This document shows positions 1 to 51,894 of a stretch of 64,000 bases of DNA, in pieces. The translations under genes were made by a program, and so were the position numbers. Under the pieces are notes generated by a model. It worked only from the letters and a program-made list of their open reading frames with translations, was not told where the DNA came from and ran no database searches. Positions within the stretch are counted from its first letter, which is position 1. Each line of letters opens with the position of its first letter. The DNA is from Planctomycetota bacterium. Lineage in GTDB: Bacteria; Planctomycetota; UBA8108; UBA1146. The stretch lies in assembly GCA_965661685.1 (NCBI GenBank), contig CBFIET010000122.1:93106-157105 (forward strand), in the 5' to 3' direction.

Positions 1-687
1 ATGGCCCTGGCAAGAAAACTCGGCAAGTATCCGATCCTGGTCAAGGATTCACCAGGTTTCCTGGTCAACCGTTTGCTCTTGCCGTACCTCGATGCGGCCT
101 CGAGATTATTGCTCGCCGGAGTCAGCGGCTCACACATCGACAAGGTCGCCAGAGCTCACGGACTTCCGATGGGCCCTTTTCGTTTGATGGACGAGGTGGG
201 ACTCGATATCGGGATCGAGGTTCAGGAAACGCTGCATGCTGCCTTCGGAGAGAGAGCGGCGTCCTCGCCGATGCTGGTGAAGATGGTCGAGAAGGGCTGG
301 CTTGGCAAGAAATCAGGAGTTGGCTTTTACCGCCATGGAGGTCGTGATTCCACCTGGAACGGTGACATCGCTCATATGATCCGTGTGCAGCACTCCACCA
401 GGAGCGAGGCCCAGATCATCTCATCCCTGATCGATCCGATGATCGACGAGGCGGCACGCTGCCTCGATGAAGAAGTGGTCGCCGATGCAGGACTTCTGGA
501 TCTTGCGATGGTGATGGGAACAGGATTTCCTCCTCATCTTGGAGGACCGCTGCGGGCTGCCGATGCAGAGGGGCTCGATGTCATCGAGAAGAGGCTCCGG
601 GCAGCCCATGAAGATGGATCGGCCCGGAGCCCCTGTGAAGGCCTCGTCGATCGAGCCCGACGAGGCGTTGGTTTTTACAGTAGTTGA
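1..687 (+). CDS. 3-hydroxyacyl-CoA dehydrogenase, C-terminal domain portion (5' end probably outside window)
   Basis: Translation KYPILVKDSPGFLVNRLLLPYL...MLVKMVEKGWLGKKSGVGFY matches the C-terminal dimerisation region of FadB/FadJ-type 3-hydroxyacyl-CoA dehydrogenases. ORF begins at nt 1. Confidence 0.7.
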   Translation: MALARKLGKYPILVKDSPGFLVNRLLLPYLDAASRLLLAGVSGSHIDKVARAHGLPMGPFRLMDEVGLDIGIEVQETLHAAFGERAASSPMLVKMVEKGWLGKKSGVGFYRHGGRDSTWNGDIAHMIRVQHSTRSEAQIISSLIDPMIDEAARCLDEEVVADAGLLDLAMVMGTGFPPHLGGPLRAADAEGLDVIEKRLRAAHEDGSARSPCEGLVDRARRGVGFYSS

Positions 688-3519
688 TTACAGTTCGCAG
701 GACCCACAGTTCGTGACCGGTGCGGCTCCGGCTCCACCTCCGAACAGGAAGATCAGCTGGTGAACCACATCGCCGAGGTTGAGGATCTGATCTCCGTTGA
801 CATCTGCCGTTCTATGGCACGGCAAATCTGCACTCATACCAAAGAGGTACAGCACCAGGCTGATCGGATCGGAAGTGTCTTCCAGCCCATCGGCATTGAC
901 ATCTCCCATGGCAAGCACACGGACCTCATTAGCCCGGGTCATCGTCGAAACGGTACCGCATACGCCGTATGCGTTGAGGGAGACCGAGTAGAAACCGGGA
1001 GTTTCGTACAGGTAGCTCACGTCGCCGTTGTTCTGAACCGTCTCACCATTACCGAAGTCCCACATCAGGTGATCTAGCGTACCGGTGGAAAGATTCGTGA
1101 AGTCAGCGCAGAAGGGAGCGACACCTGTCCAGTCCGGTAACTCAAATTGCGCTACCGGCGGTTCACAGATGATCACGTTGATCTGCGAGAAGGCTGTTCC
1201 GCATGGATTCACCACGGTGAGTCTCGCCGTGTAGGTTCCGGGCTGACCGTAGATGTGTACGGTATTCAGATCAGCAGATCCTGTTCCATCCCCGAAATCC
1301 CAGGAGATCGAACTGGCAGCGCTTCCTTCGATGATGCCACTGAAGCCGATGGGGTAGGGGATATCGGCGACGACGACGGTACTGTTGGCAGTGACCTGGG
1401 GCGCAACACACGGCGCATCATCGCCGTGAATCACCAGATTCGCTGCGTTGACCCAGCCCTGAGAACTCAACAGTGTGTCCTGGACTGTAATCACCCAGGT
1501 TCCCTGCATCGATTCTCCAAGGAAAGCGTCGAGGGATCCTTCCGGTTGCATCCGGATACCGGTACCGACCAGTGTCTCGTCGTAATTGATTCCCGATCTG
1601 TCGTAGATCATGTCGATCAGGCTTCCGGCATGGCCACCGAAGGACTCCAGGATACATACGGTTCCCGCTGGCGAGGTCAGCGTCACATGCACCTGATCGA
1701 GAGAGGGGTGTTCCATCGTCAGTGCCAGTTCAAGATCGGCGATGGCAATGTTCTCGAGTACCTCGATATTCAACTCCAACGGTGCTCCTGCGACATTCAT
1801 CTGCAGTGGCTCCAGCATGGTCAGGCTCCAGTTCTGAAGCACGCCATCGTCGGTACTGATCGAATCCACCACCTGTAACTGCCAGTTTCCCTGGCTGTTT
1901 TCGCCGTGGAAATCCGCCATCGTTCCTGGTCCTTGCGCCATCATCGACTGACCCGTTGGCAGATCAGTTGCCGAATAGGGGATACCGTAATTCGCGAATG
2001 TCGTGTGGATTTCGCCGCTACTTGTCGGGCCCTGGTCGATCAGTGTCACCTGCGTCCCGGACGGGCTACTCAGGCTCACCGAGATATCGGACAGGAAATC
2101 GTGGGTGAGGTCGATGGACGCGCCGGGGTTCAACACCGGCTGACTGGCGGTTGCGACGATGATATCCGTGGTTACCGCCGCATTGCTGATTGCCAGATTC
2201 TGAGACCCTTGAAGGAGGATCGGATCGACCACTCCCTGGTAATTCCTCTGTGTCATCTGATTGATGCGGATACACCAGTTGGAGATGGCACCATCATCAC
2301 CTGGGTACAGATCGGTGACGGTGAAGAGCCAGTTTCCGTTCAGTTCTTCTCCGTTGAAGTCACTCAGTGTTCCCGGGCCATCCGCCGTGAGTCCGGCACC
2401 GTCATCATCGAAGGTGATACCCCAGAGAGTTCCGTTGTACTGCGTTTCGTTGAGAAGGTTTACCGTGGTTCCCTCGGGACTGGTCAGTAGCACCCGTAAA
2501 TCCGCAGCAAAACTATGTTCCATCTCGAGATACAGATCTACATCACGAACGGTTCCGTGGGCATCGAGGCTCACCATCTCCATCAACAAGGCTGAGTCGC
2601 TGATGGGGCGGACGCCTCCAGGCGCACATACCTGATACTCGTGCTGGATGGAGGGATTCGGTTGAGGGCACGCAGGAATCGACTCCAGCTCGTAAATTGC
2701 ATTGAGAGAAGCATCGACGATGTACAGGGAAGGGATTCCGCTGGAACCGCTCGATGCATGGGCGATTCCATTCACGAAACCACCGATCGATGAGATGTCG
2801 GTTTCGTCGCGAATGACGCCGAGTTCATCCATGGTGCTGACAGCACTGACTCCAGTTCCACCAGGGATGTTGTGGGGAACCAAAAGCAGGTTGCAGTCGG
2901 AACGATATGCGATGCTATTTCCCGATCCACTTCCAGCAGGATGGCCGATGATTCCACCGAGGAAATCACCGGTCAGGGAATGCTCACTGTACTGATCATG
3001 TGTGACATCAACCGCCCAGATCGTTTGCTCCTCGGTGATGCAGATGTCGCCGATGATTCCGCCACCTGGAAGATCGATGTTTCCTGCGATCTGGGGATCG
3101 GAACCATCCTTCAGGCTTCTCCACAGGTTCGGGGATGCACCCTGCACCGCCCAGTAGATGTAGTCCCCGTAGATGTCGAGACCACTGGTGGAAACACTGC
3201 CCACTGGATTGTTGATTGTGGAGACGACTCCTGCAGCCAGGTTGTCGATGTTGTAGAGGTGTGTGGTTCCACTGAAGAGATCGCAGACGTACAGCTTTCT
3301 CTCCACCTCGTCGACGCAGATCCCCAGGGGATTACTACCGGAGTGGGACACGAACTGGATCGAGTCGCCGGGAGCCATCGGCCCGCTGGAGGAAGCAGTG
3401 GTAGGAAGTAGTGCGCCGCTGGTTTGGGATACGGTGCCTGGCTGCTGGTTCTGTCCATTTACAAACGTAGCGGACAGCAGGATCAGCAGGCACACGGATA
3501 CAAGATGAAACGACCTCAT
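688..3519 (-). CDS. secreted multidomain protein: signal peptide, YWTD/NHL-like beta-propeller region, 3x proprotein-convertase P-domain-like repeats, PKD-like domain, C-terminal type-I dockerin
   Basis: N-terminal MRSFHLVSVCLLILLSATFVNG signal. Three repeats of the type HSFAADLRVLLTSPEGTTVNL / THDFLSDISVSLSSPSGTQVTL / EHPSLDQVHVTLTSPAGTVCIL (P-domain-like). WDFGNGE...GFYSVSL (PKD-like). C-terminal DVNADGLEDTSDPISLVLYLF + DVNGDQILNLGDVVHQLIFLF, two Ca-binding dockerin segments. SD-like sequence upstream of the ATG at 3519. Confidence 0.7.
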   Translation of the reverse strand: MRSFHLVSVCLLILLSATFVNGQNQQPGTVSQTSGALLPTTASSSGPMAPGDSIQFVSHSGSNPLGICVDEVERKLYVCDLFSGTTHLYNIDNLAAGVVSTINNPVGSVSTSGLDIYGDYIYWAVQGASPNLWRSLKDGSDPQIAGNIDLPGGGIIGDICITEEQTIWAVDVTHDQYSEHSLTGDFLGGIIGHPAGSGSGNSIAYRSDCNLLLVPHNIPGGTGVSAVSTMDELGVIRDETDISSIGGFVNGIAHASSGSSGIPSLYIVDASLNAIYELESIPACPQPNPSIQHEYQVCAPGGVRPISDSALLMEMVSLDAHGTVRDVDLYLEMEHSFAADLRVLLTSPEGTTVNLLNETQYNGTLWGITFDDDGAGLTADGPGTLSDFNGEELNGNWLFTVTDLYPGDDGAISNWCIRINQMTQRNYQGVVDPILLQGSQNLAISNAAVTTDIIVATASQPVLNPGASIDLTHDFLSDISVSLSSPSGTQVTLIDQGPTSSGEIHTTFANYGIPYSATDLPTGQSMMAQGPGTMADFHGENSQGNWQLQVVDSISTDDGVLQNWSLTMLEPLQMNVAGAPLELNIEVLENIAIADLELALTMEHPSLDQVHVTLTSPAGTVCILESFGGHAGSLIDMIYDRSGINYDETLVGTGIRMQPEGSLDAFLGESMQGTWVITVQDTLLSSQGWVNAANLVIHGDDAPCVAPQVTANSTVVVADIPYPIGFSGIIEGSAASSISWDFGDGTGSADLNTVHIYGQPGTYTARLTVVNPCGTAFSQINVIICEPPVAQFELPDWTGVAPFCADFTNLSTGTLDHLMWDFGNGETVQNNGDVSYLYETPGFYSVSLNAYGVCGTVSTMTRANEVRVLAMGDVNADGLEDTSDPISLVLYLFGMSADLPCHRTADVNGDQILNLGDVVHQLIFLFGGGAGAAPVTNCGSCEL

Positions 3520-3703: not shown

Positions 3704-5149
3704 ATGTACCGCACCTTTATCGCCAGCACCTTGCTGCTTTTCGTCGTTTGTGGACCCTGTTCGGCAATTGATGCCGGAAAGGATGACCAGGCGAGGAGAG
3801 AAGAACTGGTCAAGAACCTGCAGATCCTCGACCCCAAGATCAGCATGCAGGCGTTTGACCGCATCGCGGTGGAGGGAGATCCTGAGTTCCTGCCGCTATT
3901 GCAACCGGTCCTCGAGGAGAAGGACCAAGCCACCCGCAGGATGGTCGTGTTGCTCGTGGTTCGAGGATTCGAGCAGTACTCCTACGACTTTTTCCAGGAA
4001 GTACTCAAGTCAGGAAATGAGCACGCTCGAGAAGCCGCAGTACATGGCCTGGGAATGATTCTCGATACAAGGGTTCCTGATCAACTGGTTCCTTTCCTGC
4101 TCGATCCCGTGCGTAAGATGCGAGTGGCTGCGCTTCGCGGTTTCTTCTCACAGGCGATGCCATCGGTCAGAGCCGCCATGAGTCGTGTGGTCGGTCAACC
4201 GATCGATGCTCCACCTCAGGCCACTTCCTGTCGCCAGGCAGCGCTGTCAGCGATCGTCACCGTCAGGAAATCACTCCCAGATGACCCCGATATCGTCAAC
4301 ATGTTCCTGAGGCTCTCCGATTCATCGATGGGGGATGTGTTTCGAGACCGTTGGATCAAGGAACAACCTGCTGCCAAACATCTAGAAAAGATCTTCAACG
4401 CCAATGGTCGCTGGATCGGGCGTCCCGCAGTTGCGGGGCATTACGATTACCAGCTCTCGATGGTGAATTTCGATGCCGATTCCTCCAAGGAGATCGTCAT
4501 TCATGCCACTCCATCTCAGATCGAATTACTGCGGTCGATGGGATACGACCTCGACCGCGTGATGCATCTCAGAACCGCAGCGGACCTGTTCTTCACGATT
4601 CCAGACCAGGTCAAGGCTGTCATCGCTCCCATCGAGGAGAACTCCCCGATCGAACTGGAGATCCAGATCTCCTCCTTTCCCATTCGCCATGCCGGTATCG
4701 GACTGCTCAACATCGCTTACTGGGAGGGACGTGTCGACAAGGCGAGCAAAGCGTTCCTGCGTTTCGACCAGGACAGTGGTCGCCTCCTTTCCGAATCGAT
4801 TCGGAATGATGCAGGACAGGAACTCTGGAAACTTGAAGTGGTCGATTGGATCGAGGATCAGCCCTTCCCGCGATCGGTCGCCATCAATTTTCCGGTGGCA
4901 CAGATCGGTGGGCGCAATGCACACCTGAAGGTCGATATCGAATTCCAGCACAGAAACGATTGCTGGTTGCTGAAAACGGCGCAGACGACCGAACAACTCC
5001 CCGACGGGAGCTCCGAGATCCGTGCCTACGGTGAAGTGTCTTGGCTCGCTTCCCCTGAATCCTCTGAAGATTCCACTTCTCCCGAAGGCGGGGAAGAGGA
5101 AGACTCTTCTTCAGGCCAGGGATCCGATGCAGGGAAGCCACGCGAATAG
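3704..5149 (+). CDS. secreted HEAT/PBS-lyase-like repeat protein with acidic Ser/Glu-rich C-terminal tail
   Basis: GGAGGA SD before ATG 3704. Signal-like N-terminus MYRTFIASTLLLFVVCGPCSA. Repeated helical D/E-rich LxxLL segments. No catalytic motif recognised. Confidence 0.5.
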   Translation: MYRTFIASTLLLFVVCGPCSAIDAGKDDQARREELVKNLQILDPKISMQAFDRIAVEGDPEFLPLLQPVLEEKDQATRRMVVLLVVRGFEQYSYDFFQEVLKSGNEHAREAAVHGLGMILDTRVPDQLVPFLLDPVRKMRVAALRGFFSQAMPSVRAAMSRVVGQPIDAPPQATSCRQAALSAIVTVRKSLPDDPDIVNMFLRLSDSSMGDVFRDRWIKEQPAAKHLEKIFNANGRWIGRPAVAGHYDYQLSMVNFDADSSKEIVIHATPSQIELLRSMGYDLDRVMHLRTAADLFFTIPDQVKAVIAPIEENSPIELEIQISSFPIRHAGIGLLNIAYWEGRVDKASKAFLRFDQDSGRLLSESIRNDAGQELWKLEVVDWIEDQPFPRSVAINFPVAQIGGRNAHLKVDIEFQHRNDCWLLKTAQTTEQLPDGSSEIRAYGEVSWLASPESSEDSTSPEGGEEEDSSSGQGSDAGKPRE

Positions 5150-6678
5150 AGTTCGCGGTTGCCCAGCAGCCGCTTGACGATGTCATCCCTGCTGGCATTC
5201 CGAGCCGCACCGATGGCGGCATCCTGCCAGCGCAATGCATCGGCGTGGCGACCACTCGCGGCCAGTAGCATCGCCTTGCTCTCCACCTCTTCCAGCGTCG
5301 TCTGATTCGCCAGCAGTTCTTCGATTTCCGCGAGAGACTGCTCGATCTCGCTGGCGGTCGGATTCTCTGATGTTGCGAGCAATCGGGCGTGCATCGACAC
5401 GAGACGCCGGTTCCGTCCGGTTGCAGAGAGTCCCTCGACACACACCCTCAGCGCCTCCTCGGTCAAATCCATTCGTATGAAGCACACCGCCTCCGCAAGC
5501 CACGCTGCACTCTGGCCGGGAAGTACGGTACGTACACGCCTCATCTCCTGAGCTGCGGTGTCGAACTTCTTGAGCCTCCTGAGGGCATTGGCTCGATTGA
5601 ATCGGGCATCGGTATTGGCAGGATATGCGAGAAGAGCGCGGTCATAGCACTCGATGGCTGCCTCGTCATCTCCACGAGCGGCATGAATCACACCGATGTC
5701 GAACCACGCGGTTGTCGAGGAGGAATCGAGGCGAAGTGCTTCCTGGTAACAAACGATCGCTTCGGGATATCGCTTCAGTTTAGCGAGGGCAGATCCCATG
5801 TTGAGATGTGCGGTAGATGCATCAGGAGCCGCTCTCACCGCCATCTCGAACTGCTCCAGCGCCTTGTCGTAATATCCTTCCTTGAAGAAAGTGGTACCAC
5901 GATTGAGAGGAATTCTCGCTCCGATGGGTCGAGATCGAACATCGGCAAGCCAGCGATCGGGCACCCTTGGAAACGCATCCCCTCGAGACTTCATCTGCCG
6001 TTCTGCTTCATCGGTTCTGCCAGTATCACGCAGCGCCAGTCCGTACGGATAGCGGACTCCAGTGGCTCCTGGAGACAACCTCAGCGCTTCCTCCAGGTAG
6101 ATCACCGCCTGTTGTGGGTCATCCGCCTGCAGTGCCAGGCGTCCGAGTCCGGCAAGGGCCTGGGCGCAGAGGGGATCGACATTCAACATCCTCTGGAAGT
6201 GGGCGATGGCTGCGGCGTCTTGCCCTTGCTGACGCTGCAATTCAGCCAGGGCAGCAAGTGTAGGCATGTGATCCGGCTTCTCCTCCAGCACCACTCGATA
6301 GAGGGAGATCGCCTCCTGCACGTTGCCAAGATCCGCTTCGATTCGTGCCAGCAGATATTTCCACCGGGTTTGCCGGGGATCTTCCTCGATGGCGATCCGG
6401 TAAAGAGAAGTTGCCATCAGCAGCAGGTCATATCCGTGGTAGGAGATGGCGACATCTCCGATCACATTTGAACGCTGCTCAGCTGTGGAGTCGCCAGGAA
6501 TCGAATCGAGACGGGAGTACTCTTCTCTCAGATGATCGGCAACATTCGCCTCGAGTCCCAGCAGTGGTGGAGGGGGGGGCCAGCGGGAAGGATCGCTGCA
6601 GCCGGCAATTACCACGCAACACAACATCCAGCCAGCCGTGATGACACTCCATGACCTGTAAGGTTGCCTCTTCACCAT
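5026..6678 (-). CDS. TPR-repeat lipoprotein
   Basis: N-terminus ...VVIAGCSDP (lipobox-like). Multiple 34-aa TPR-like units (AxxxYxxALxxxP pattern repeated). Start overlaps the stop of the upstream FG-GAP gene, indicating an operon. Acidic S/E tail. Confidence 0.65.
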   Translation of the reverse strand: MVKRQPYRSWSVITAGWMLCCVVIAGCSDPSRWPPPPPLLGLEANVADHLREEYSRLDSIPGDSTAEQRSNVIGDVAISYHGYDLLLMATSLYRIAIEEDPRQTRWKYLLARIEADLGNVQEAISLYRVVLEEKPDHMPTLAALAELQRQQGQDAAAIAHFQRMLNVDPLCAQALAGLGRLALQADDPQQAVIYLEEALRLSPGATGVRYPYGLALRDTGRTDEAERQMKSRGDAFPRVPDRWLADVRSRPIGARIPLNRGTTFFKEGYYDKALEQFEMAVRAAPDASTAHLNMGSALAKLKRYPEAIVCYQEALRLDSSSTTAWFDIGVIHAARGDDEAAIECYDRALLAYPANTDARFNRANALRRLKKFDTAAQEMRRVRTVLPGQSAAWLAEAVCFIRMDLTEEALRVCVEGLSATGRNRRLVSMHARLLATSENPTASEIEQSLAEIEELLANQTTLEEVESKAMLLAASGRHADALRWQDAAIGAARNASRDDIVKRLLGNRELYSRGFPASDPWPEEESSSSPPSGEVESSEDSGEASQDTSP

Positions 6679-8456
6679 CTCTCACCCTGCCCCTGGACGA
6701 TGACGTGGTATCGATCCACATCCAGGTTGGAAAAGGTCTCGATGGTTCCGTCGTTCCAGTGCACTTCCATCGAGCACTTCTGAACCACCTTGCCGAGGCC
6801 GACGACCACACGGGGATCGTTACTGCACAGGTAAGAGCCACCGCGCGAGGAGTTTCGATATCTGGGGGGATTCGATCCCTGACGGAGCACCAGCTGGATC
6901 CCACTGATCACATCACCCCGGGGAGATCGCAGATCTGCACCGATCCAGTGTCCTGCATCTCCCTGAAGATTCTGCAGCACCCGAATCTCTCCGCAGTTAT
7001 TGGTGACGACGATGTCCACGTCTCCATCGTCATCGATGTCTCCAAATGCAGCACCACGCCCTACCGCAGCTTCTTGCAAGATCGTTGCGCTGCGCGGATC
7101 GAGTTCGACAAATGTTTCGCCCTGTCGATTTACGAACACCTGGTCCGGTTGGTCGAGTGGATACGGATCGCCGGCAGCGACTAGCTCTTCCATCCGCTTG
7201 ACCGCTCCATTGGCGATGAAGAGGTCGAGCCAACCATCGTTATCCAGGTCGAACCAGGCGGTTCCGAAGCCGGTCCAGCGACGGCTCGCCACGGCGAGAC
7301 CGGCACGGGCAGTCTCATCGTTGAAGTTGCCCTTGCCATCGTTGCGATAGAGAGTATTGGTCTCGCCGGTGAGGTGGGTGAGAAAGATATCCTGGTCCCC
7401 ATCTCCGTCAAAATCTGCGAGATCAGCGCCCATCGAGGCCTCTGGCCTTCCATCTCGATTGAAAGCACACCCCGTGAGCAATCCGGCATCTTCGAATCGG
7501 AAGGGGGCAACTTGCTTCCAGAAACGGTTGGCCATCCCATCGTTGGCGACGTAAAAATCGAGTTCTCCATCCCCGTCGAGATCGCTACAAACCACCCCCA
7601 GGCCGGCACCTGGAGCGGCTCCAATTCCACTGCTCGATGTCACGTCCTCGAAGGTCCCATCTCCTCGATTGCGGTAAAGACGATCTGGCAGTGGGGGGTA
7701 GGAACTGGGACCGCAATATTCCACGGCACTGCTCTCGGCAAAACAGGGTTTGTGATTGGCAAGAGTGAAATCGATGTAGGAACAGACGTAGAGATCTTCA
7801 TCTCCATCCCGATCGACATCGACAAACAGGGCACTGGTCGTCCAGCGATCGTCGTCGATCCCGGCCGTCGTTGCGCCCTCATGAAAGCGCCCCTCGCCAT
7901 CATTGATCCACAACTGATCCGTTCCGAAACAGCTCAAGAAAAGATCGAGATCCCCATCTCCATCGATGTCTGCAACGGCGCATCCCATCCCGTATCCGTA
8001 TGCCTCGATGCCAGAGAGATCGGTGACATCTAGAAAACTGGGGACTCCATTCCGATCCTTGCCTCGATTTTCAAAGAGGCGCCCCCCCTGCGGCTGACCT
8101 GCGGGAGGAGGCAGGATGCGATCGGCGGGCCCTTTATCCGCGCCGAGCAGGTTTCCCTGGGGAACGAAAAGGTCGAGATCTCCGTCTCCATCCATGTCGA
8201 AGAGAGCAGATCCAGGACCCACCGTCTCGCAGAAGTAGAGTTCACCGGTCATGCCGTTGTCGTGCCGGAAATCGATTCCCCACTTCTCCGATACCTCGAC
8301 CAGTGCCTGCGGAAACTGCTGAGAGGTACAGCCAGCGAGAAGCAGGAAGTGCAGAGATACCGCCACCAGATAAAGTGGCAGGAATAGCCACAACCGGTGG
8401 GTTCGAAACGGGGTTACACCCCAGGAATCAGATCTGAAATCGCTGCCGGGCATTCC
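6672..8456 (-). CDS. FG-GAP repeat / ASPIC-UnbV (CRTAC1-like) protein; ORF extends to 8561 but the signal/lipobox at M36 suggests a start near 8456
   Basis: Repeated DxDGDGDLDLF / DLDGDGELDFYVAN Ca-binding FG-GAP motifs and a C-terminal UnbV/ASPIC-like region. Hydrophobic leader LWLFLPLYLVAVSLHFLLLAGC follows the internal Met. Confidence 0.7.
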   Translation of the reverse strand, partial: GMPGSDFRSDSWGVTPFRTHRLWLFLPLYLVAVSLHFLLLAGCTSQQFPQALVEVSEKWGIDFRHDNGMTGELYFCETVGPGSALFDMDGDGDLDLFVPQGNLLGADKGPADRILPPPAGQPQGGRLFENRGKDRNGVPSFLDVTDLSGIEAYGYGMGCAVADIDGDGDLDLFLSCFGTDQLWINDGEGRFHEGATTAGIDDDRWTTSALFVDVDRDGDEDLYVCSYIDFTLANHKPCFAESSAVEYCGPSSYPPLPDRLYRNRGDGTFEDVTSSSGIGAAPGAGLGVVCSDLDGDGELDFYVANDGMANRFWKQVAPFRFEDAGLLTGCAFNRDGRPEASMGADLADFDGDGDQDIFLTHLTGETNTLYRNDGKGNFNDETARAGLAVASRRWTGFGTAWFDLDNDGWLDLFIANGAVKRMEELVAAGDPYPLDQPDQVFVNRQGETFVELDPRSATILQEAAVGRGAAFGDIDDDGDVDIVVTNNCGEIRVLQNLQGDAGHWIGADLRSPRGDVISGIQLVLRQGSNPPRYRNSSRGGSYLCSNDPRVVVGLGKVVQKCSMEVHWNDGTIETFSNLDVDRYHVIVQGQGERW

Positions 8457-8563
8457 TTGCGTCCTGTCCTGGCTCTGCTGTTGCAGGCCGATTCCACTGG
8501 ATACTTTTCCAGTGTCAGCGAGAATGAGGAGAACACCTCTCCCTCGAGTTAGGATACACATTC

Positions 8564-14110: not shown

Positions 14111-15208
14111 CTACTTCCGCATCTGCTGCCAGTACTCTGACGGCATCTCCTGGGCGAGTTTCAGAGCTCCTTGCGCTCCGGCGTACACTGCGTCGTCGAC
14201 GATGGTCACGCGACCTCCGCCCAGTTCCTGCAGTCCTCTCTCCAGTGCTTCCTGAAGACCGAATACCTGCGAACCACCGCCACTGACGATGACCCTGTTG
14301 CGGATCTTGTGCTGGAACTCGGGATCGAAGGTGGCAACCAGCGACTGAATTCCGCCGGTGATCGAAGGGATCAACTCCTCGACTGCCTGACGAATCTGGT
14401 CGGTGATATCGATCTCGGTCGGCTTTCCAGCGACCGGGAAGGTCACCAGTGCCCGCTTGTCGCTATCCACCACGCTGCTGAAGCGCTCCTTGGCCTTCTT
14501 GACCATGTTGTGTGTGAACTGCACGGCGGGGTGAGCCTCCTGGATCAACTTCATCAGCTGGCGATCGACGTAGTTTCCTGCCCGGAACAGGGTCACCTGG
14601 TCCTCGGCGTCGGGCAGGCTGCCCGCCATCCGGCACAGGTCGATGGTTCCCGCTCCGATGTCGATGACGATGGCGTTCTCCAGGGCGTCGAGGGCATAGG
14701 CAACCGCAAACGGCTCCGACACCACCATGACTCCCTCGATACCCGCCTCACGTGCCAGATCGACGATCGCTTGCTTGTTCTCTCTGGTCGCTTCTGCCGG
14801 GGCTCCGATGACGGCACACACCGCCTGATCGGGACGGGGGTTACACGACTGACGAAGGGCACTGAGAAGCGTGACTCCCGCCTTCCTCGACAGTTCCTTG
14901 GCGGAACCGTCCATCTCGGTGTAGGCGAGGTTGCCGTCCTTGAGAGGGAAACAACAGTTCAACGCCAGTCGATTCTCGTGAACCGAATCTCCTACCAGCG
15001 TGGCCGCGCCCAGTACCTTTGCGGAGACACTGTCCTTGGGCCAGCCGACCAGGCTCGCCATCACGTCTCTCGATCCATTGGATCCGGCGATGGCACTGCG
15101 ACTGGTTCCCAGGTCGATTCCCACGTGCAGGATACTGTTCTTCACATCGATCCGTGGCGTGGCTACGTCTCTGGTGTTCTTTGCTTTCAAGTTGTTTTCC
15201 GGGGTCAT
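14111..15208 (-). CDS. MamK-family actin-like ATPase (orphan, no magnetosome context)
   Basis: Colinear similarity to MamK over the whole length: VGIDLGTSRS (phosphate-1), VGWPKD, CAVIGAP, VVSEPFAVAY, IDIGAGTIDLC (phosphate-2), QVTLFRAGNYVD, IVSGGGS (adenosine), GALKLAQEMPSEYWQQM C-terminus. SD AGGAAGAAGAAGG upstream. Confidence 0.8.
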   Translation of the reverse strand: MTPENNLKAKNTRDVATPRIDVKNSILHVGIDLGTSRSAIAGSNGSRDVMASLVGWPKDSVSAKVLGAATLVGDSVHENRLALNCCFPLKDGNLAYTEMDGSAKELSRKAGVTLLSALRQSCNPRPDQAVCAVIGAPAEATRENKQAIVDLAREAGIEGVMVVSEPFAVAYALDALENAIVIDIGAGTIDLCRMAGSLPDAEDQVTLFRAGNYVDRQLMKLIQEAHPAVQFTHNMVKKAKERFSSVVDSDKRALVTFPVAGKPTEIDITDQIRQAVEELIPSITGGIQSLVATFDPEFQHKIRNRVIVSGGGSQVFGLQEALERGLQELGGGRVTIVDDAVYAGAQGALKLAQEMPSEYWQQMRK

Positions 15209-16316: not shown

Positions 16317-17627
16317 ATGACATTACGCCTCCCCCTGCTGGTCGGCTGGATCACCATCCTCGCCCTCGTCACTTCGACGAGCGTGGCACAGGATTACAAC
16401 TTTCACTTCGACACCACCGCCAGCGGACCTACCGGCTCCGTAATCACCACCCGGGCGCTGATCGACAATCCCGGGGGTCCCCTCGCTGGCTGGTCGATCG
16501 GGATCTGCCACGATGACAACATGGATTTCCTCGAGATCGCCGACGGCAATGCCCCGATGACTGCCAACGCTGGCGGTCCTGCTGACTTCGTCCAGACCAA
16601 TCACTACCCGGGATTCGGAGCCAATCAGGGTGTCGTGGTCAACTTCGTCGGAACAAACGAACTTCCCATCGCCACTGATCATGAAGCCATCACGATGCAG
16701 ACGATGCTGCTTGGACCTGACGACACCACCTCGTCGATGTCCTTCTGCAATGCCGTATTCCCCGGAGAAACGAGCGAATTTGAAAACCTCGCAGTGGCTC
16801 CAGGGGGTATCGCCATCGTTCCCACCATGATGGATGGAATCGTCGAGATCGGCGGATTGCTCCCCTTCGAGTTGAGCGCGGTTCCTTCCGCTCCTTCCGT
16901 CGAGCAGGGCAACTCCATCGACGTCCAGATCATGCTCAATGCACCGGCAGAGAACTACGGTTTCTCGCTGGGATTCGCCCATTCGGGGGCGTCCCTCACC
17001 CTCGTCGGTGCGGATATCGGTAGCGCACTCGCGGTTCTCAACGGTGGCTCCGGTCCGGAATACCTGACCCTGGACCTTGACCCCGAAGGAGCCAACGGCC
17101 TGATCGTCGCCTGCCTCTACTCCGTCTCCTCGCTGCTCGCGCTTCCCGCCGGAAACGGACAGGAACTGGTGGTGGCCCACTACGATGCGCCATCTACCGC
17201 CCCTCTGGGAATCACCGGGCTCAACTTCAGCGAGGACCTGGTGCCACAGTCACCTTCTCCGCCGACCGCGATCGTCATCTCTCTGGGCCAGACCTCCGGC
17301 CCGGTAGTGACCTCGGGAACCAGCATCGAGATCCTCGAAGGAGTGGTTGGAGTTCAGTTCCAGCGTGGCGACTTCGATGGAAGCGGATCCCTCAACCTGG
17401 GTGATCCCGTCAACCTGCTCGGCTACATGTTCAACGGTGGGGCAGCCCCCCTGTGCGAGAAAATCGGCGACATCGACGACAGCGGCAGCATCGTGCTGGG
17501 AGATCCGGTACAGCTGTTGACCTACATGTTCTCCGGTGGTTCTGCTCCGGCAGAACCGTTCGATCAGTGCGGAATCGACCCGACTGAAGACGATCTGACC
17601 TGTGAGGAGTTTGACGCCTGCCCCTGA
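16317..17627 (+). CDS. secreted protein with two cohesin-like modules and a C-terminal type-I dockerin
   Basis: ATG 16317 (MTLRLPLLVGWITILALVTSTSVAQ signal). Segments GWSIGICHDDNMDFLEIADG and NSIDVQIMLNAPAENYGFSLGFAHSGASLTLVGADIG resemble cohesin beta-sandwich signatures. C-terminal DFDGSGSLNLGDPVNLLGYMF + DIDDSGSIVLGDPVQLLTYMF dockerin repeats. Confidence 0.6.
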   Translation: MTLRLPLLVGWITILALVTSTSVAQDYNFHFDTTASGPTGSVITTRALIDNPGGPLAGWSIGICHDDNMDFLEIADGNAPMTANAGGPADFVQTNHYPGFGANQGVVVNFVGTNELPIATDHEAITMQTMLLGPDDTTSSMSFCNAVFPGETSEFENLAVAPGGIAIVPTMMDGIVEIGGLLPFELSAVPSAPSVEQGNSIDVQIMLNAPAENYGFSLGFAHSGASLTLVGADIGSALAVLNGGSGPEYLTLDLDPEGANGLIVACLYSVSSLLALPAGNGQELVVAHYDAPSTAPLGITGLNFSEDLVPQSPSPPTAIVISLGQTSGPVVTSGTSIEILEGVVGVQFQRGDFDGSGSLNLGDPVNLLGYMFNGGAAPLCEKIGDIDDSGSIVLGDPVQLLTYMFSGGSAPAEPFDQCGIDPTEDDLTCEEFDACP

Positions 17628-18653: not shown

Positions 18654-19865
18654 TCAGGTGCGACCCACCTTGGCCCGGATCGGCCGATGGGTCACCTCGG
18701 AAGTTCCGCGCAGCAGTCCATCCGGATGGATCACCTCGACCGGATGGCGCGCGATGGAAACGACGATCCCCAGCGCCGCCAGCGACACGACGATGGAGGT
18801 TCCTCCATAGGAAACGAAGGGGAGGGGAAGACCCGTCACCGGCAGCAGGCCCACCGTCATCGACAGGTTGATGGCGGCCTGAAACCCGATCTGACTCGCC
18901 AGGCCTACTGCGACCAACCGCCCGAACGGATCTCGACAGTTCCATGCAACTCCCAGCATCGTCCACACCAGGACCAGGTATCCGATCACCACGGAAAGGG
19001 TTCCGATCAGTCCCAGTTCTTCGCCGATGACGGAGAAGATGAAATCGTTGTGGTCCTCCGGGACGTAGCCCAGATCATGGTGGCTTCCCATGTGCAGCCC
19101 CTTGCCGGTGGGGCCTCCGCTACCGATGGCGATGATCGATTGCGCCACCTGATAGCCTCCTTCCGATTCGCCGGAAACTTCACCGTACCCGACATAGGAG
19201 AGGATTCGATCCTTCTGATAGTCTCTCAATAGTGGCCAGCTGGCCGGGCCACCAATCACCGCCGCCAACACGATCAGTAGCAAAAACCTCCGCATCGAGA
19301 TCCCCGCAACCCACAGCATCATCACCGTGGTGGGGATCAGGATCAGCGCGGTGCCCAGGTCTGGCTGGGCTGCGATCAGCAGGAAAGGAATCGTGGCGAA
19401 TCCCACCCAGCGAACGATTTGCAGCCAACGGTCTACACCTTCACCGGGTCGAATCAGGTGAGCGAGGAACAGAACCGTGGATATCTTCGCAAGTTCCGAA
19501 GGTTGCAATCCGATTCCACCGAAGCGTATCCAGCGAACCACACCCGCTCCGGTGGCCCACTTCCAGAGCAGCAACAGCACCAGAAGTGCCACCGATGCAG
19601 CAAAGAAAACCTGTGCAACCTGACGGAATCGGCGTGGATGGACGAGGGAAATCGCCATCATGGCGACAACTCCCACGATGATCTTCTTGAGGTGGCTTGA
19701 TGCGTAGGGACCCGGGAATCCTGTCTCCGGTCCGTCCGCAGCACTGTGCACGAAGATGGTTCCCACCATCAGCAGCCAGACTCCTGCAAGAACCAGCAAG
19801 ATGGCGGGGCCAGCCCAACCATTCTTCCAGCCAGCGATCCAGTGCGTCAGATGAAGCGACGTCAT
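18654..19865 (-). CDS. rodA: rod shape-determining protein RodA (SEDS family); start at ATG 19865 overlapping the mrdA stop (ATGA), not the 574-aa ORF start
   Basis: MTSLHLTHWIAGW... with multiple TM segments. Conserved SEDS C-terminal region ...GGPTGKGLHMGSHHDLGYVPEDHNDFIFSVIGEELG. Confidence 0.85.
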   Translation of the reverse strand: MTSLHLTHWIAGWKNGWAGPAILLVLAGVWLLMVGTIFVHSAADGPETGFPGPYASSHLKKIIVGVVAMMAISLVHPRRFRQVAQVFFAASVALLVLLLLWKWATGAGVVRWIRFGGIGLQPSELAKISTVLFLAHLIRPGEGVDRWLQIVRWVGFATIPFLLIAAQPDLGTALILIPTTVMMLWVAGISMRRFLLLIVLAAVIGGPASWPLLRDYQKDRILSYVGYGEVSGESEGGYQVAQSIIAIGSGGPTGKGLHMGSHHDLGYVPEDHNDFIFSVIGEELGLIGTLSVVIGYLVLVWTMLGVAWNCRDPFGRLVAVGLASQIGFQAAINLSMTVGLLPVTGLPLPFVSYGGTSIVVSLAALGIVVSIARHPVEVIHPDGLLRGTSEVTHRPIRAKVGRT

Positions 19866-22015
19866 CGTCGTAACTCCATCCCTCGGTGCTCCTCGAGCCA
19901 GTCGAGTATTGAAGCGAGCAGTGGCGCACAGGCTTCCCCGCCATGCTGGGGCACATCCTGCAAGGAGATGGCAAAGGCAAACTTCGGCTCCACTACCGGG
20001 GTGAATCCGATCAACCATGCATGGTAACTGGGATCGGAGGAGATCTGAGCAGATCCTGATTTCACTGCCACGTCGAACCCCGAAAGACCGTAAGAAGATC
20101 GGGATGCGGTTCCTCCACGATCCCGTACCGCAGACACCATCCCATCGATCACACTTTCGAAATGACGCAACTCGATGGCTGGTTCCGCGGGTTCGCCGTC
20201 GATCGTTGCCACGACCTTGACCCCGGGAGAACTGCCACGACAGGCGATGCTCAACGCCACCCTCGCCATCTGCAGTGGCGTCACGGTGAAGCCGCGACCG
20301 ATGGCGGTGCCCACCGGGTTGGCCCGGGGTTTCAGGCCGATCGCCTCGGAGGCGATCCCGCTCCTGCTCGATCGCCACAGGCCCAGCGATTCGCCGGTAG
20401 CGATCATCTTGTCGATTCCCAGCCTCTGACCCATCTTGTAGAAATAAACGTTACAAGAGCGGGCCAGAGCCTCCGACAGATTGACGGAAAGGCCAGCGGG
20501 ATGATTGGTGCAGCGGCTCCGATCGGGCCGTCCAGGATCGAGCACACCGTTACAGACGATCTCGTCGTCAGCGGTGACCAATCCCTCCTGTAGAGCAGCG
20601 AGCCCGACCACCGTTTTGAAGGTTGAGCCGGGATCGACCGGCCACGAACTGACTCGATCATGAAACCAACCATCTCGAGATAGACTACGAGATCTGTACA
20701 GTTCACGGTCCTTGTAGACTTCCATCCCTTGCTGGGGGAGGGAGGCCCAGCCGAAAGCAGCGCCCGTATTGACGTCGAGCATCACGATGGCACCAGTTCG
20801 TACTCCCTGCGCTTGCATCTGATCGATACAAAAGCGGCTCAGTTGCGAGTCGATGGTGAGCTGGGTGTCCGATCCCTTGATGGCGTCTGCCACATCAAGA
20901 GCGGATCCAATCGATCGCCTGCGTTGATCGAGGATGCGAACCTCGGCGCCGGGAACTCCCCTGAGATCTTCCTCGAGAACCGACTCCAGCCCCGACCTTC
21001 CGACACGATCAGCGCTGTGATGAGAATACCTTCGAACCGCCTCGAAGACCCTCAGGTCGCGGAGAACCAGCCGGTCGATGATGGGTTCCTGCCGTGATTT
21101 CCAGGCGTCGACGATTTCCTCGCTGGGTAAGCCGGTATGTCCCAGCAATTGACCGAGAAAGGGGTCCAGTGGATGTACCCGGTCGTGGACTTCTTCCAGG
21201 TGAATACCAGGCCACTTTTCCGGTTCAGTACTGATGGCTACGACCAGAGAAGGGGGAACATCTTCGTGGAGGGGATGGCGCTGACGCCTGAAGACCCACT
21301 CTCGTTCCTGCAATTCCACAGCCGGATCCTGAACTCGGTCGTATGCCAGCTCGACCTTGCTCCACAGTTTCCCGGTCTCCAGTTCCAACACCTTTTCCAT
21401 CTTCCTGATACCGATCTCCCCGGCGAACAGGCCATCCGGATCGATGAAAATCGTGTAACTCTGACCAGCCTTGCTGGAGCGGATTCCCGGAAAGTCCTCG
21501 GGGCGTTTGGCGATGGCTCGGGCCACCGCTCTACCACACTTCGGATCGACACGGGTCAACCAGGGGTGCTCCTGATGATCGATATCGGTGGCGAACCTTG
21601 CCCTGATCTGCTCACGAGCTCCCTGAAGGGAGCTCCACAGGATCTCTTCATTCCAGGGGTAGCTGTCGTCAGAACTTCGCAGGATCTTGGTCAACCGCCG
21701 GGCGACCCACCGTACAGGTTCCAGTTCCGAAAGGAGAAAGGTGGCCCTCACAGCCGGTTCATCCCTGGCCAGAATGACTCCCCGAGCATCGACGATCTGT
21801 CCCCGAGGCGCGGGAGTGTAACGAATTGATCTGTGGATGCTGGATGCTCGTAAGGCATGGTCACGCCAGTCCATCCCCTGCAATTGCACAAGTCGAGCTG
21901 CGATACCCACAGACATCAGTAGGAACAGCACAGCGATGGGGATGATCCGGTTCCGCTGCATCAGATCCCCCCGTGGGATTTCGGAGTGCAGCGATTCACA
22001 GTGGATACCTCGCAC
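19862..22015 (-). CDS. mrdA: penicillin-binding protein 2 (elongation transpeptidase); alternative start at Met19 (~21961)
   Basis: N-terminal TM MQRNRIIPIAVLFLLMSVGIAARLVQLQ. Transpeptidase motifs STFK (GSTFKTVVG), SCN (ARSCNVYFY), KSG (VAVKSGSAQ). Confidence 0.85.
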   Translation of the reverse strand: MRGIHCESLHSEIPRGDLMQRNRIIPIAVLFLLMSVGIAARLVQLQGMDWRDHALRASSIHRSIRYTPAPRGQIVDARGVILARDEPAVRATFLLSELEPVRWVARRLTKILRSSDDSYPWNEEILWSSLQGAREQIRARFATDIDHQEHPWLTRVDPKCGRAVARAIAKRPEDFPGIRSSKAGQSYTIFIDPDGLFAGEIGIRKMEKVLELETGKLWSKVELAYDRVQDPAVELQEREWVFRRQRHPLHEDVPPSLVVAISTEPEKWPGIHLEEVHDRVHPLDPFLGQLLGHTGLPSEEIVDAWKSRQEPIIDRLVLRDLRVFEAVRRYSHHSADRVGRSGLESVLEEDLRGVPGAEVRILDQRRRSIGSALDVADAIKGSDTQLTIDSQLSRFCIDQMQAQGVRTGAIVMLDVNTGAAFGWASLPQQGMEVYKDRELYRSRSLSRDGWFHDRVSSWPVDPGSTFKTVVGLAALQEGLVTADDEIVCNGVLDPGRPDRSRCTNHPAGLSVNLSEALARSCNVYFYKMGQRLGIDKMIATGESLGLWRSSRSGIASEAIGLKPRANPVGTAIGRGFTVTPLQMARVALSIACRGSSPGVKVVATIDGEPAEPAIELRHFESVIDGMVSAVRDRGGTASRSSYGLSGFDVAVKSGSAQISSDPSYHAWLIGFTPVVEPKFAFAISLQDVPQHGGEACAPLLASILDWLEEHRGMELRR

Positions 22016-22475
22016 TCTTCAGGAACGGCCTCACGATATCGAGTACTGGCAACAGGATCGCTGTCACCACCGCACTCAAAAGCAACGCCGGAAACATCAT
22101 TTGAAAGGTGGGAAAGACGCCGGAAAGCATCGATTCCTGCACGCTGACGCCGATCAGCAGTGACGGCAAGATGATCTGAATACGACGATAAGGATGATGG
22201 GGATCGAACACGGTCTTGAGGAACCGAACGGTGAGTACCGTGCACAGCAATGGAACCACGGCATCGACGGGAGTTGTGATTCCGCCAAGACACCTGTGGG
22301 CAGCGACCACCACAATCATCAGCAAGAGACGTGGCCAGCGATCTACCAGTGCCATCCAGCACACGAAGATCAGCAGCGGATCGGCCATCCCGAGGGCTGG
22401 TTGCAACAATGGGCGAAACGCCACCCCCGTGAAGGTTGCCAGGATCATGATGAGGAACAACCATGAGAACCTCAC
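21996..22475 (-). CDS. mreD: rod shape-determining protein MreD (polytopic membrane protein)
   Basis: 159-aa protein, hydrophobic throughout. Positioned between mreC and mrdA with overlaps at both ends. Confidence 0.55.
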   Translation of the reverse strand: MRFSWLFLIMILATFTGVAFRPLLQPALGMADPLLIFVCWMALVDRWPRLLLMIVVVAAHRCLGGITTPVDAVVPLLCTVLTVRFLKTVFDPHHPYRRIQIILPSLLIGVSVQESMLSGVFPTFQMMFPALLLSAVVTAILLPVLDIVRPFLKSARYPL

Positions 22476-23182
22476 TGCGATCCACCTCTCGTCAGCGGCA
22501 CCAGTACCAGGACTTCCTGTACCTGTTTCAAACCCTGGCTGAGGAGGATCTTCGATTCTCGGTGGGGGATCCTGACCTCGCCAACGACACCGATCACCAG
22601 CCCCTCGGGAAAGACCGTGCCGCCACCATGGGTACGAATTACATCGCCGACGGAGAGGTCGATGTACTCCATGCGCAGGCGAGGATGCCCATGTCCTGGC
22701 CCAGGTCCACCTGCGAAGATCCCGGCACCGCCCTCCTCATCGAGGAAGGGAACCACGAAAGCAGGATCATCCGCCAGTTGAACCCTCGACCACCCCTGCT
22801 CGGAACGGACCACCTTTCCGATCACTCCGGAAGCTCCGATGATTCCCATACCCGGAGCGATCTCGACCTCTGATCCTCGATCAATACGGGCGGATGATCT
22901 CCTCGGATGAGGATCGAAGTGGGGGGTCAATCGTGCAGGGACCAGTTGATACAGCGTCCCTGCGAAGTCCGATGCGAGGTAGCGATCGATCAGATCCTGG
23001 CGCTCGATGAGTGCATCTTGTGAATCGCTGATCAGTTGCGTTCTCTGGAGAGCTTGTTCCAGAAGCTGGATGCGAACACGATCGGAGCCGGATGAGGACA
23101 CGAGGGGCTGAAGCCCGTAGCCGATCAGGGCCAGGACCAACCAGCAACCGATCGCCCAGTAAGCGCGTTCGATGCGCTTCAA
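22472..23182 (-). CDS. mreC: rod shape-determining protein MreC
   Basis: N-terminal TM followed by a coiled-coil (LLEQALQRTQLISDSQDALIERQDLIDRY), then C-terminal beta domains GDVIRTHGGGTVFPEGLVIGVV typical of MreC. Confidence 0.8.
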   Translation of the reverse strand: MKRIERAYWAIGCWLVLALIGYGLQPLVSSSGSDRVRIQLLEQALQRTQLISDSQDALIERQDLIDRYLASDFAGTLYQLVPARLTPHFDPHPRRSSARIDRGSEVEIAPGMGIIGASGVIGKVVRSEQGWSRVQLADDPAFVVPFLDEEGGAGIFAGGPGPGHGHPRLRMEYIDLSVGDVIRTHGGGTVFPEGLVIGVVGEVRIPHRESKILLSQGLKQVQEVLVLVPLTRGGSQ

Positions 23183-23214: not shown

Positions 23215-24252
23215 CTAGTAATCGTCGTCGACGGAGTCGAGGACGGAGGAATACTGATCCAGTTTCTCGAGGAATATGGCGGTTCCACGGGCCACGCAGG
23301 TGAGTGGGTCGTCTGCCACCCGCACCGGCAATCCGGTCACCTTCCGGATCGTCTCATCGAGACCGCGCAGTAACACGCCGCCACCACAGAGGACGATTCC
23401 ACGCTCCACCAGATCGGCACACAGTTCGGGGTCAGTCGTTTCAAGTGTCGACTTGATCCCTTCGATGATCTTGTCGACGGGGGGCTGCAGTGCCTCCCGG
23501 ATCTCTTCACTGGTGATTCGTGCACTGCGAGGAAGATTGCCGATGAGATCGCGCCCCTTCACCTCCATCTCGAGTTCCTCTTCGAGTGGGTAGGCGGACC
23601 CGATCCCGATCTTGATCTGCTCCGCAGTCAGCGGTCCAACCAGGATGTTATAGGTGTCCTTCATGTACTTGACGATCGCTTCGTCCATGTCATCTCCGGC
23701 GACGCGCAACGACACGCTGGTCACCACATCTGCCAGGGACAGTACTGCGATTTCTGTGGTTCCACCGCCGACATCCACGACCATGCTTGCGATCGGCTCT
23801 TCGATGGGCAATCCAGCACCGAGACCGGCAGCTCGCGGCTCTTCCACGAGGTAAACCTTGCGAGCACCGGCACGCTCCGCAGAGTTGTAGACGGCACGCT
23901 TCTCCACTGCTGTGATCCCGCTGGGAACAGCGATCACAACACGTGGGCTGAAAAATCTGGATCGGTTTTGCACCCTCGTGATGAAGTACTTGAGCATCGC
24001 CTCGGTGATCTCGAAATCGGCGATGACTCCATCCCGGAGGGGACGGACCGCTTCGATGGAGGTGGGGGTTCTGCCCATCATCTCCTTGGCGACACTGCCG
24101 ACAGCTCTTCCATCGAGAAGTACCTGGTTGGTACCTGCTTTGACCGCCACCACCGATGGCTCGCTGATGACGATTCCTCGCCCACCAACACAAACGAGGG
24201 TGTTGGCAGTTCCAAGATCGATACCAAGATCAGTAGAAAACTTCCCCACCAA
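23215..24252 (-). CDS. mreB: rod shape-determining actin MreB (start likely TTG 24252 or GTG 24249; the ORF to 24423 has no plausible upstream Met)
   Basis: LVGKFSTDLGIDLGTANTLVCVGGRGIVISEPSVVAV... Full-length MreB with all actin-fold motifs. Confidence 0.9.
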   Translation of the reverse strand: MVGKFSTDLGIDLGTANTLVCVGGRGIVISEPSVVAVKAGTNQVLLDGRAVGSVAKEMMGRTPTSIEAVRPLRDGVIADFEITEAMLKYFITRVQNRSRFFSPRVVIAVPSGITAVEKRAVYNSAERAGARKVYLVEEPRAAGLGAGLPIEEPIASMVVDVGGGTTEIAVLSLADVVTSVSLRVAGDDMDEAIVKYMKDTYNILVGPLTAEQIKIGIGSAYPLEEELEMEVKGRDLIGNLPRSARITSEEIREALQPPVDKIIEGIKSTLETTDPELCADLVERGIVLCGGGVLLRGLDETIRKVTGLPVRVADDPLTCVARGTAIFLEKLDQYSSVLDSVDDDY

Positions 24253-24566
24253 GGCCTGTGTGAAATTCTGTGCGATACGGAAAACCAAGATATGATCTCC
24301 TCGTCCGATCCCTGCCGGCACCGTGGTGCTGGCATCGAGATCAGTTTCCCCTTGAGGACTCCTGTCCTCTTTCCCACTTCGAACTCCCGCAAATTCCGGC
24401 AGGCACTCGCACCTGCTTGCCATGATATTGCATCACGGACGGGATTCCCTCACTGCTGCGCCCTGTATCATAAGCAGGAAAATGGCCGGAGGCGAGGGAC
24501 TAACACCGATCCTTGTCGCAGGAAGGAATGCGCTCGACCGCCGATCTCCGATGCGGACAGGCGCAA

Positions 24567-38335: not shown

Positions 38336-38343
38336 GGCATCCC

Positions 38344-39882: not shown

Positions 39883-39925
39883 CGGCCAGGCCTTTCCCAG
39901 GCCAGCGGGTAGATCGGCAAGGGAC

Positions 39926-41788: not shown

Positions 41789-41922
41789 CGAATCTCCCAA
41801 CAAGCAGGTTCTTCCACGAGAAGGCCCGGGCGTGCTACGACCGGCCGCCGGAATGCAGGAATAAACAGGACGTGACACGGGGCCGATCTATTCAACCAGC
41901 CTTACGATCCAATCGCTGGCGG

Positions 41923-42156
41923 TCATTCGGAGGTGGCTTCTTCTGCACCTTCCGTGGCCGTTTCGTCCTTCTCCTTCTTCGCCTTGGCCCGCTTCTTCAC
42001 CTTCAGAACGCGCGTTTTCGGCAAGCCGAGAGGAGCATCCTCTCCCTCGACGAAGCGACCTTGCTCCTCCAGCTGGAGAATTCTTTCGTAACGGGTCAGC
42101 ACATTTCGGGTTCCCCCGAGGCCGTCTCCGGTTTTCAGGGTCCTGTGAATCGACAT
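41923..42156 (-). CDS. small basic conserved-looking hypothetical protein (77 aa)
   Basis: MSIHRTLKTGDGLGGTRNVLTRYERILQLEE... with a K/E-rich tail. Lies in the intergenic region upstream of the minus-strand transporter operon. Confidence 0.35.
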   Translation of the reverse strand: MSIHRTLKTGDGLGGTRNVLTRYERILQLEEQGRFVEGEDAPLGLPKTRVLKVKKRAKAKKEKDETATEGAEEATSE

Positions 42157-45922: not shown

Positions 45923-45931
45923 CCCGGGTAA

Positions 45932-47762: not shown

Positions 47763-47771
47763 GGGTCCCCG

Positions 47772-51875: not shown

Positions 51876-51894
51876 TGGTGCTGAAGGAGTCCCG

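Follow-up and report, generated by a model that had tools for sequence, protein, structure and literature searches.

The gene at 688..3519 (minus strand) of a 64,000-nucleotide stretch of a Planctomycetota genome (GenBank assembly GCA_965661685.1, contig CBFIET010000122.1, positions 93,106 to 157,105), hereafter called the window, encodes a secreted modular protein of 943 amino acids (aa). It can be described as a Sec-exported protein without detectable enzyme domain, the C-terminal dockerin-type module of which would pair with a cohesin-fold adaptor of 436 aa, encoded 12.8 kb away, and we give this reading about an even chance. Pfam, profile, and sequence searches together yield the order signal peptide, YWTD-like domain, three P-domains, PKD, and dockerin-type module, in agreement with an earlier description made from the DNA letters only (the sequence-only reading). 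As judged from predicted structures, the 943-aa and 436-aa proteins may form a docking pair of a non-cellulosomal kind.

Domain composition of the 943-aa protein

The open reading frame (ORF) starts with an ATG, located 6 nt downstream of a GGAGG ribosome-binding site, and ends with a stop codon at 688..690. Its GC content at third codon positions (GC3) is 0.65, and neighboring genes are alike. Full-length orthologues, with 37-87% identity, are found in Planctomycetota metagenome-assembled genomes (MAGs), and further support the gene call. All the parts described below are on the minus strand.

The duplicated 22-residue F-hand of type-I dockerins (a Ca2+ loop and a helix, twice) is found at the C-terminus of the protein, in a module spanning aa 870-928 and followed by a Cys-containing tail to aa 943 (691..912). 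The loops, 33 residues apart, read D873-x-N-x-D-G-x-x-D-x-x-D884 and D906-x-N-x-D-Q-x-x-N-x-x-D917, the predicted Ca2+ ligands being D873-N875-D877-D881-D884 in loop 1 and D906-N908-D910-N914-D917 in loop 2. They are followed by predicted helices at 885-894 and 915-926, and their Asp/Asn residues are invariant in orthologues. A profile of eight orthologous C-termini matches 27 chains of the PDB, about 19 of which are type-I dockerins (E 1.7e-5 to 1e-2), and the single sequence matches 4dh2_B at 2e-3; the FG-GAP model of Pfam is sub-threshold on this region. The module is also homologous to the C-terminal module of the 436-aa protein (hhalign 98%, E 1.6e-13; 35-40% identity with tblastn), and these two genes are the only ones of the 64-kb window to contain a double F-hand motif. 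Sequence comparison, therefore, supports the assignment of the C-terminus to a dockerin-type module, whose subfamily is divergent and marked by a (Y/F)(L/M)FxGG motif and by conserved cysteines. The type-I dockerin of the sequence-only reading agrees with the double F-hand and with the solved structures matched, although the Pfam Dockerin_1 model scores below its cut-off.

At the other end, a Sec-type signal peptide without lipobox (aa 1-22, 3454..3519; MRSFHLVSVCLLILLSATFVNG, with the inferred cleavage site before Q) is kept in orthologues, and its residues 3-16 form a helix in the predicted model. It precedes a low-complexity linker rich in Ser, Thr, Pro, and Gly (aa 23-54, 3358..3453), with a predicted local distance difference test (pLDDT) score of about 22-25. 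The next domain (aa about 55-283, 2671..3357) was delimited from phmmer searches against the PDB, a sub-threshold NHL match, the predicted model, and invariant columns. Five clear [N/H/L]PxG...Y(W/V)xD-type repeats can be counted in its sequence. In a phmmer search of aa 47-300 against all PDB chains, 22 of the 28 matches were YWTD propellers of LRP4 or LRP6. The whole-chain E-values (8.3e-13 for LRP4 and about 6e-8 for LRP6) add up several weak matches to repeated propellers, as single stretches have E-values of 0.015-2, the best one being 0.015. In the printed alignments, NPLGICVDEVERKLYVCD is aligned with P(A/D)G(L/I)A(I/V)DWVxxKLYWTD of LRP4/LRP6, and GDYIYWAVQGASPNLWRSLKDGS is a further N-terminal stretch paired with PDB sequences. 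A PDB search with a profile of eight orthologous N-termini returned zero matches; because the single-sequence search alone finds LRP4/LRP6, the propeller call stays moderate. In the predicted model, this head consists of beta strands only, in repeats of four, but half of the domain (aa 190-293) falls below pLDDT 50. With moderate confidence, the domain is best read as 'YWTD-class propeller-like', with blade number and fold both putative. The sequence-only reading had named a YWTD/NHL-like propeller: the similarity to the solved YWTD propellers agrees with it, whereas neither the NHL model (14 bits, E 0.054, cut-off 20) nor Ldl_recept_b (no match at E<=10) recognizes the domain in Pfam scans. 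Conservation across the family is highest in this head, in the motifs DVT[HN]DQYSxH, HPxGxGxGxxIx[YF]RxDC, PNLWRS, and PH, the first two being invariant in orthologues.

Between the head and the dockerin-type module, the whole-protein Pfam scan assigns three stretches to P_proprotein (PF01483, E 3.2e-41) and two to PKD/PKD_4. The P-domains cover aa about 295-421 (Pfam core 325-418; 2257..2637; pLDDT 70-85), about 423-570 (core 468-568; 1810..2253), and about 575-701 (core 595-692; 1417..1797). Scanned separately, they reach 53.1, 61.7, and 38.8 bits (E 3.5e-14, 7.1e-17, and 1e-9), i.e., all above the P_proprotein gathering score of 21 bits. The number of P-domains given in the sequence-only reading is, thus, correct, the three peptide motifs that it quoted being present at aa 335-355, 472-493, and 603-624. 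The single PKD-like domain that it described has to be replaced by two. PKD domain 1 (aa 704-785, 1165..1410) carries a WDFGDG motif at aa 740-745 and scores 50.8 bits with PKD_4 and 46.4 bits with PKD (Pfam region about aa 708-783), its PDB matches being ColH and an archaeal S-layer PKD. PKD domain 2 (aa 786-868, 916..1164) carries WDFGNG at aa 820-825 and scores 36.8 and 27.5 bits, respectively (about aa 800-867). Both are at or above the gathering score (PF00801 / PF18911) and have a WDFGDG-type motif.

No enzyme family is matched in the 943-aa protein by Pfam or NCBIfam, even at E<=10. Foldseek comparison of the full-length model, with a predicted template modeling score (pTM) of 0.35, returns generic multi-beta-domain matches (SorCS2, phage tail tips, complement proteins), with the archaeal S-layer propeller and PKD protein 1l0q and the Aeromonas ASP protease also among the structural neighbors. 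This model-based result says little about any single domain.

Patterns derived from the head motifs retrieve 10 loci only among the GTDB species representatives, all encoding full-length orthologues and all from Planctomycetota MAGs, one of which is mislabelled as Bacillota. The combination of a YWTD-like head, three P-domains, two PKD domains, and a dockerin is limited to about 10 Planctomycetota species representatives. In NCBI, the orthologues are named 'proprotein convertase P-domain-containing protein' or 'PKD domain-containing protein'. Distant orthologues present expanded arrays, with four P-domains in P0007 (locus L004) and P0008 (loci L005 and L006), and several extra PKD domains in the 1557-aa P0008. 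The stalk, thus, differs in length among lineages, whereas head and dockerin are retained.

The candidate partner and the proposed docking

The gene at 16317..17627 (plus strand) encodes the candidate partner, a secreted protein of 436 aa with a signal peptide at aa 1-24. Its AlphaFold model, based on a 19-sequence alignment, is confident (mean pLDDT 83.4) and consists of two beta-sandwich domains and a two-helix C-terminal module. When this model is compared with the PDB using Foldseek, the top match is the type-II cohesin dyad of the Acetivibrio cellulolyticus adaptor ScaA (3l8q, E 2e-12), followed by C. thermocellum CipA fragments and single cohesins, with target TM-scores (template modeling) of 0.66-0.81. 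The nine-stranded jelly-roll of cohesins is seen in the predicted model. The predicted structure delimits cohesin-fold module 1 at aa about 27-179 (16395..16853) and module 2 at aa about 183-341 (16863..17339), and homology and profile searches place a dockerin-type module at aa about 350-419 (17365..17573). The profile of the family matches dockerins only, via the C-terminus (E 2.9e-5). Planctomycetota metagenomes contain about 20 protein clusters with members of 27-96% identity, and this family is one of predicted 'cryptic' cohesins, linked to cohesins by no sequence method. The sequence-only reading had suggested this protein as a cohesin scaffold. The two predicted cohesin-fold modules go along with that; nevertheless, its C-terminal dockerin, of the same family as that of the 943-aa protein, would make it an adaptor and not a plain scaffold.

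A mechanism can be proposed from these parts. The 943-aa protein would be exported through Sec. Beyond a flexible linker, the propeller-like head, with its invariant polar cluster, would be the likely ligand-recognition end, probably in a binding role and possibly a catalytic one. Three P-domain beta-sandwiches and two Ig-like PKD domains would form a rigid stalk, at the end of which the dockerin-type module would bind Ca2+ and dock, in a Ca2+-dependent manner, onto a cohesin-fold module, the 436-aa adaptor being the candidate receptor. With its two cohesin-fold modules, the adaptor could hold two dockerin-bearing subunits, and its own dockerin could attach to a further cohesin, or to another copy of the adaptor. 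The export, head, and stalk steps follow domain identities, whereas we infer the docking and the attachment of the adaptor.

Several observations weigh against this explanation. Pfam Dockerin_1 (PF00404) fails on the C-terminus of the 943-aa protein, with 7.2 bits and E 8 versus a cut-off of 22.9, so that the dockerin call is made from profile, fold, and homology evidence; the module is also below pLDDT 50 in the 943-aa model. On the partner side, Pfam finds no match in the 436-aa protein, even at E<=10, including Cohesin (PF00963), and neither sequence nor profile searches with this protein match any cohesin in the PDB. Its two cohesin-fold modules, which share 6-16% sequence identity with real cohesins, have strong support from the predicted structure, but at the fold level only. 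As the dockerin of the adaptor is of the same family as that of the 943-aa protein, docking specificity is in doubt. The invariant His, Asp, Tyr, and Arg residues of the head could, from their conservation, mark a catalytic metal site, making 'non-enzymatic' wrong. Finally, although the two genes share a block with conserved synteny throughout the lineage, this block extends to housekeeping genes, and contains those for PGK, aminoacyl-tRNA synthetases (including ProRS), MreB, MreC, PBP2, and RodA. Co-occurrence is, thus, observed, but proximity does not imply a functional link, and synteny was rejected as evidence of linkage because it is a property of the block in its entirety.

P-domains without protease and the rival explanations

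The sequence-only reading had presented P-domains without a subtilisin as an oddity. When aa 300-700 were searched exhaustively with HMMER against 1.84 billion cluster representatives, 4954 related proteins were identified at E<=1e-3, of which 921 reach E<=1e-10. Among these 4954 relatives, the best 150 mostly have 2-15 matched stretches and are up to 5764 aa long. Sixty of these 150 were scanned with Pfam, namely all 48 of <=1000 aa and 12 of up to 1262 aa. P_proprotein is present in 60/60, and Peptidase_S8 is absent from the 25 families listed across them; as none of the four unlisted families has more than one member, Peptidase_S8 is possible in at most 1/60. The commonest companions of P_proprotein are CarboxypepD_reg, the T9SS tail (type IX secretion system), SdrD_B, HYR, SpaA, SLH, cadherin-like, and FG-GAP modules. 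A screen for the S8 triad motif flags 3 of 149 relatives. Protease-less P-domain arrays are common in bacteria and no anomaly in themselves, and the supposed oddity disappears.

At this locus, the absence of a protease domain anywhere in the ORF, as first proposed, is confirmed by Pfam, which finds no match to Peptidase_S8 (PF00082). Just 184 nt separate the 943-aa gene from the divergent HEAT-repeat gene at 3704..5149, no subtilase-like sequence occurs in any frame of the window, and the S8 triad-motif screen of its six frames is empty. Pfam scans of about 50 window ORFs reveal no peptidase, and phmmer searches with the S8-containing P0010 and three S8-triad-bearing relatives find only the 943-aa ORF, via shared P and PKD domains. 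A subtilisin frameshifted upstream, which the sequence-only reading had considered, would have to fit in this 184-nt gap, and is contradicted by the empty frames. The protein could still be regarded as the remnant of a kexin-like subtilase that lost its catalytic domain, or as a fragment frameshifted from it, since P-domains follow S8 domains in eukaryotic and in some bacterial convertases, e.g., the Aeromonas ASP protease, to which a fold match was found. This is most improbable: the gap and the empty frames leave no place for the missing part, the ORF opens with a signal peptide of its own, which is retained together with the N-terminal domain even in orthologues of just 37% identity, and the nearest P-domain relatives are also without S8. 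As far as the window shows, a kexin-like protease fragment, with a frameshifted or neighboring subtilisin, is excluded for this locus.

Two other explanations keep more weight. The protein may, less probably than a docking partner but with appreciable odds, be a general surface adhesin or an S-layer-associated binding protein, the dockerin-like module of which does not bind cohesin, but serves as a Ca2+-dependent anchor to the envelope or to a polysaccharide, or as a Ca2+-stabilized folding unit. Surface and adhesion proteins are where propellers, PKD domains, and P-domain arrays are typically seen, 1l0q and SorCS2 are structural neighbors, and 14 of 149 P-domain relatives end in a double F-hand similar to that of the 943-aa protein, which makes the module widespread. 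Dockerin-like modules also occur widely outside cellulosomes, as indicated by the title of Peer et al. 2009 (cited in PMC6461901). What speaks against this explanation is the presence, 12.8 kb away and in the same lineage, of a gene for two confidently predicted cohesin-fold modules, i.e., the canonical receptor. Distinctly less likely is that the protein is an enzyme attached through its dockerin, with the propeller as catalytic domain (e.g., a metal-dependent lyase, lactonase, or cyclase of the six-bladed NHL/SGL type) and with the P and PKD domains as spacers, in the manner of cellulosomal enzymes. Dockerins are normally borne by enzymes in cellulosomes, and the most conserved stretch of the protein is in the propeller, rich in His, Asp, Tyr, and Arg. 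However, the Pfam and NCBIfam scans detect no enzyme family, the head has no other sequence relatives than the YWTD propellers of LRP4 and LRP6, which are non-catalytic, and with eight fairly close orthologues only, many columns are invariant whatever the function.

Known assemblies, neighboring genes, and significance

The proposed docking of the Sec-exported protein onto a cohesin-fold adaptor can be compared with several known systems. The planctosome is a hypothetical extracellular peptide-degrading complex based on cohesins and dockerins, proposed for the freshwater Planctomycetes 'Nemodlikiaceae' (Andrei et al., ISME J 2019, PMC6461901). Its anchoring protein combines a lamin-tail domain (LTD), multiple P-domains, TSP3 repeats, and a cohesin; its adaptor has the order dockerin-HYR-cohesin, and dockerin-bearing M12B and M14 peptidases are the docked subunits (PMC6461901). 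The present pair is similar in that it comes from the same phylum, with multiple protease-less P-domains, cohesin, and dockerin co-occurring in secreted proteins, an adaptor having both dockerin and cohesin, and no cellulose-degrading context. In contrast, the P-domains of the planctosome are on the cohesin-bearing anchor, whereas here they are on the dockerin-bearing protein, together with a YWTD-like head and two PKD domains, and its adaptor contains HYR, whereas the present one has two cohesin-fold modules undetected by Pfam. Among the window ORFs scanned with Pfam, none was an LTD, HYR, or peptidase gene, and none showed any of the planctosome architectures. The pair would be a variant of non-cellulosomal cohesin-dockerin assemblies, the nearest published example of which, and a precedent in favor of the docking, is the planctosome hypothesis. 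The titles and abstracts of the papers found to mention the planctosome indicate no experimental test of it.

With cellulosomes, the likeness lies in the order cohesin-cohesin-dockerin of the 436-aa protein, as in the adaptor scaffoldin ScaA of A. cellulolyticus, its best structural match, and in the duplicated F-hand that ends the 943-aa protein, with all Ca2+-ligand positions filled as in type-I dockerin subunits. Nevertheless, there is no carbohydrate-active enzyme (CAZyme) or carbohydrate-binding module (CBM) here, the host is a diderm planctomycete, the 436-aa modules have no sequence-level match to real cohesins, and the clostridial dockerin consensus is devoid of the (Y/F)(L/M)FxGG motif and conserved Cys of the present subfamily. 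Bacterial protease-less PF01483 surface proteins also resemble the 943-aa protein, with tandem P-domains associated with Ig-like, cadherin-like, HYR, FG-GAP, SLH, or T9SS-tail modules, and no S8. With kexin/furin-type convertases (S8B), the protein shares the P-domain fold and family, but it has three P-domains versus one, and neither a catalytic domain nor a pro-domain. It is not a member of S8B, as its P-domains follow a YWTD-like domain and not a protease.

At its 3' side, the 943-aa gene meets a convergent FadB-type gene (1..687, plus strand): the two stop codons adjoin at 685..690, with zero intergenic bases, so that a terminator would not fit in between. L001 and L002 show this arrangement too. 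The divergent neighbor at 3704..5149 (plus strand) encodes a secreted protein of 481 aa, in which a signal peptide and HEAT repeats are combined with an acidic tail rich in Ser, Glu, and Gly; the gene shares 124 nt at its 3' end with the convergent TPR gene (5026..6678), and it adjoins the 943-aa gene in every orthologous locus but one assembly (L006). A secreted FG-GAP/ASPIC (UnbV) repeat protein is encoded in the same conserved block, at 6672..8561 (minus strand), and a sulfatase gene is located at 54188..55804 (plus strand), both being typical of planctomycete surface and polymer-degrading repertoires.

Two actin-like genes are present on the minus strand, at 14111..15208 and 23215..24423. 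One is a canonical MreB (464 bits), adjoining MreC, PBP2, and RodA genes at 18654..23182, and the other, just upstream of the cohesin-fold gene and syntenic in related MAGs, is a divergent MreB-like paralogue (79 bits; weak Salactin and Alp7A matches). An unusually dense cluster of Opp/Dpp-type peptide ATP-binding cassette (ABC) transporter genes spans 34513..54368, with four SBP_bac_5 binding proteins (39926..41878, 42370..44148, 47772..49586, and 49842..51875), eight BPD_transp_1 permeases, and two oligo_HPY ATPases. It fits a peptide-scavenging lifestyle, but does not argue for a link to the 943-aa/436-aa pair. Scans of the window for tRNA genes and Rfam families found none.

To our knowledge, cohesin-dockerin assemblies are well understood in cellulolytic Firmicutes only, and their role in other phyla is largely conjecture. 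The locus offers a compact candidate pair for a planctosome-type test, with a dockerin of roughly 75 aa and two cohesin-fold modules, each about 150 aa long. The result also removes a false lead, as bacterial P-domains without subtilisin need no flag as anomalies. Because the cohesin modules are invisible to Pfam, yet clear at the fold level, sequence-based censuses may undercount cohesins. Tentatively, and with odds clearly on the lower side, the two proteins could be a genuine Ca2+-dependent pair, with which a marine Planctomycetota lineage would build an extracellular multiprotein assembly from 'cryptic' cohesins. If so, this assembly would expose, at the end of a P-domain/PKD stalk, a YWTD-propeller head with a recognition or catalytic role, and the hypothetical planctosome idea would gain its first concrete, cloneable interaction pair.

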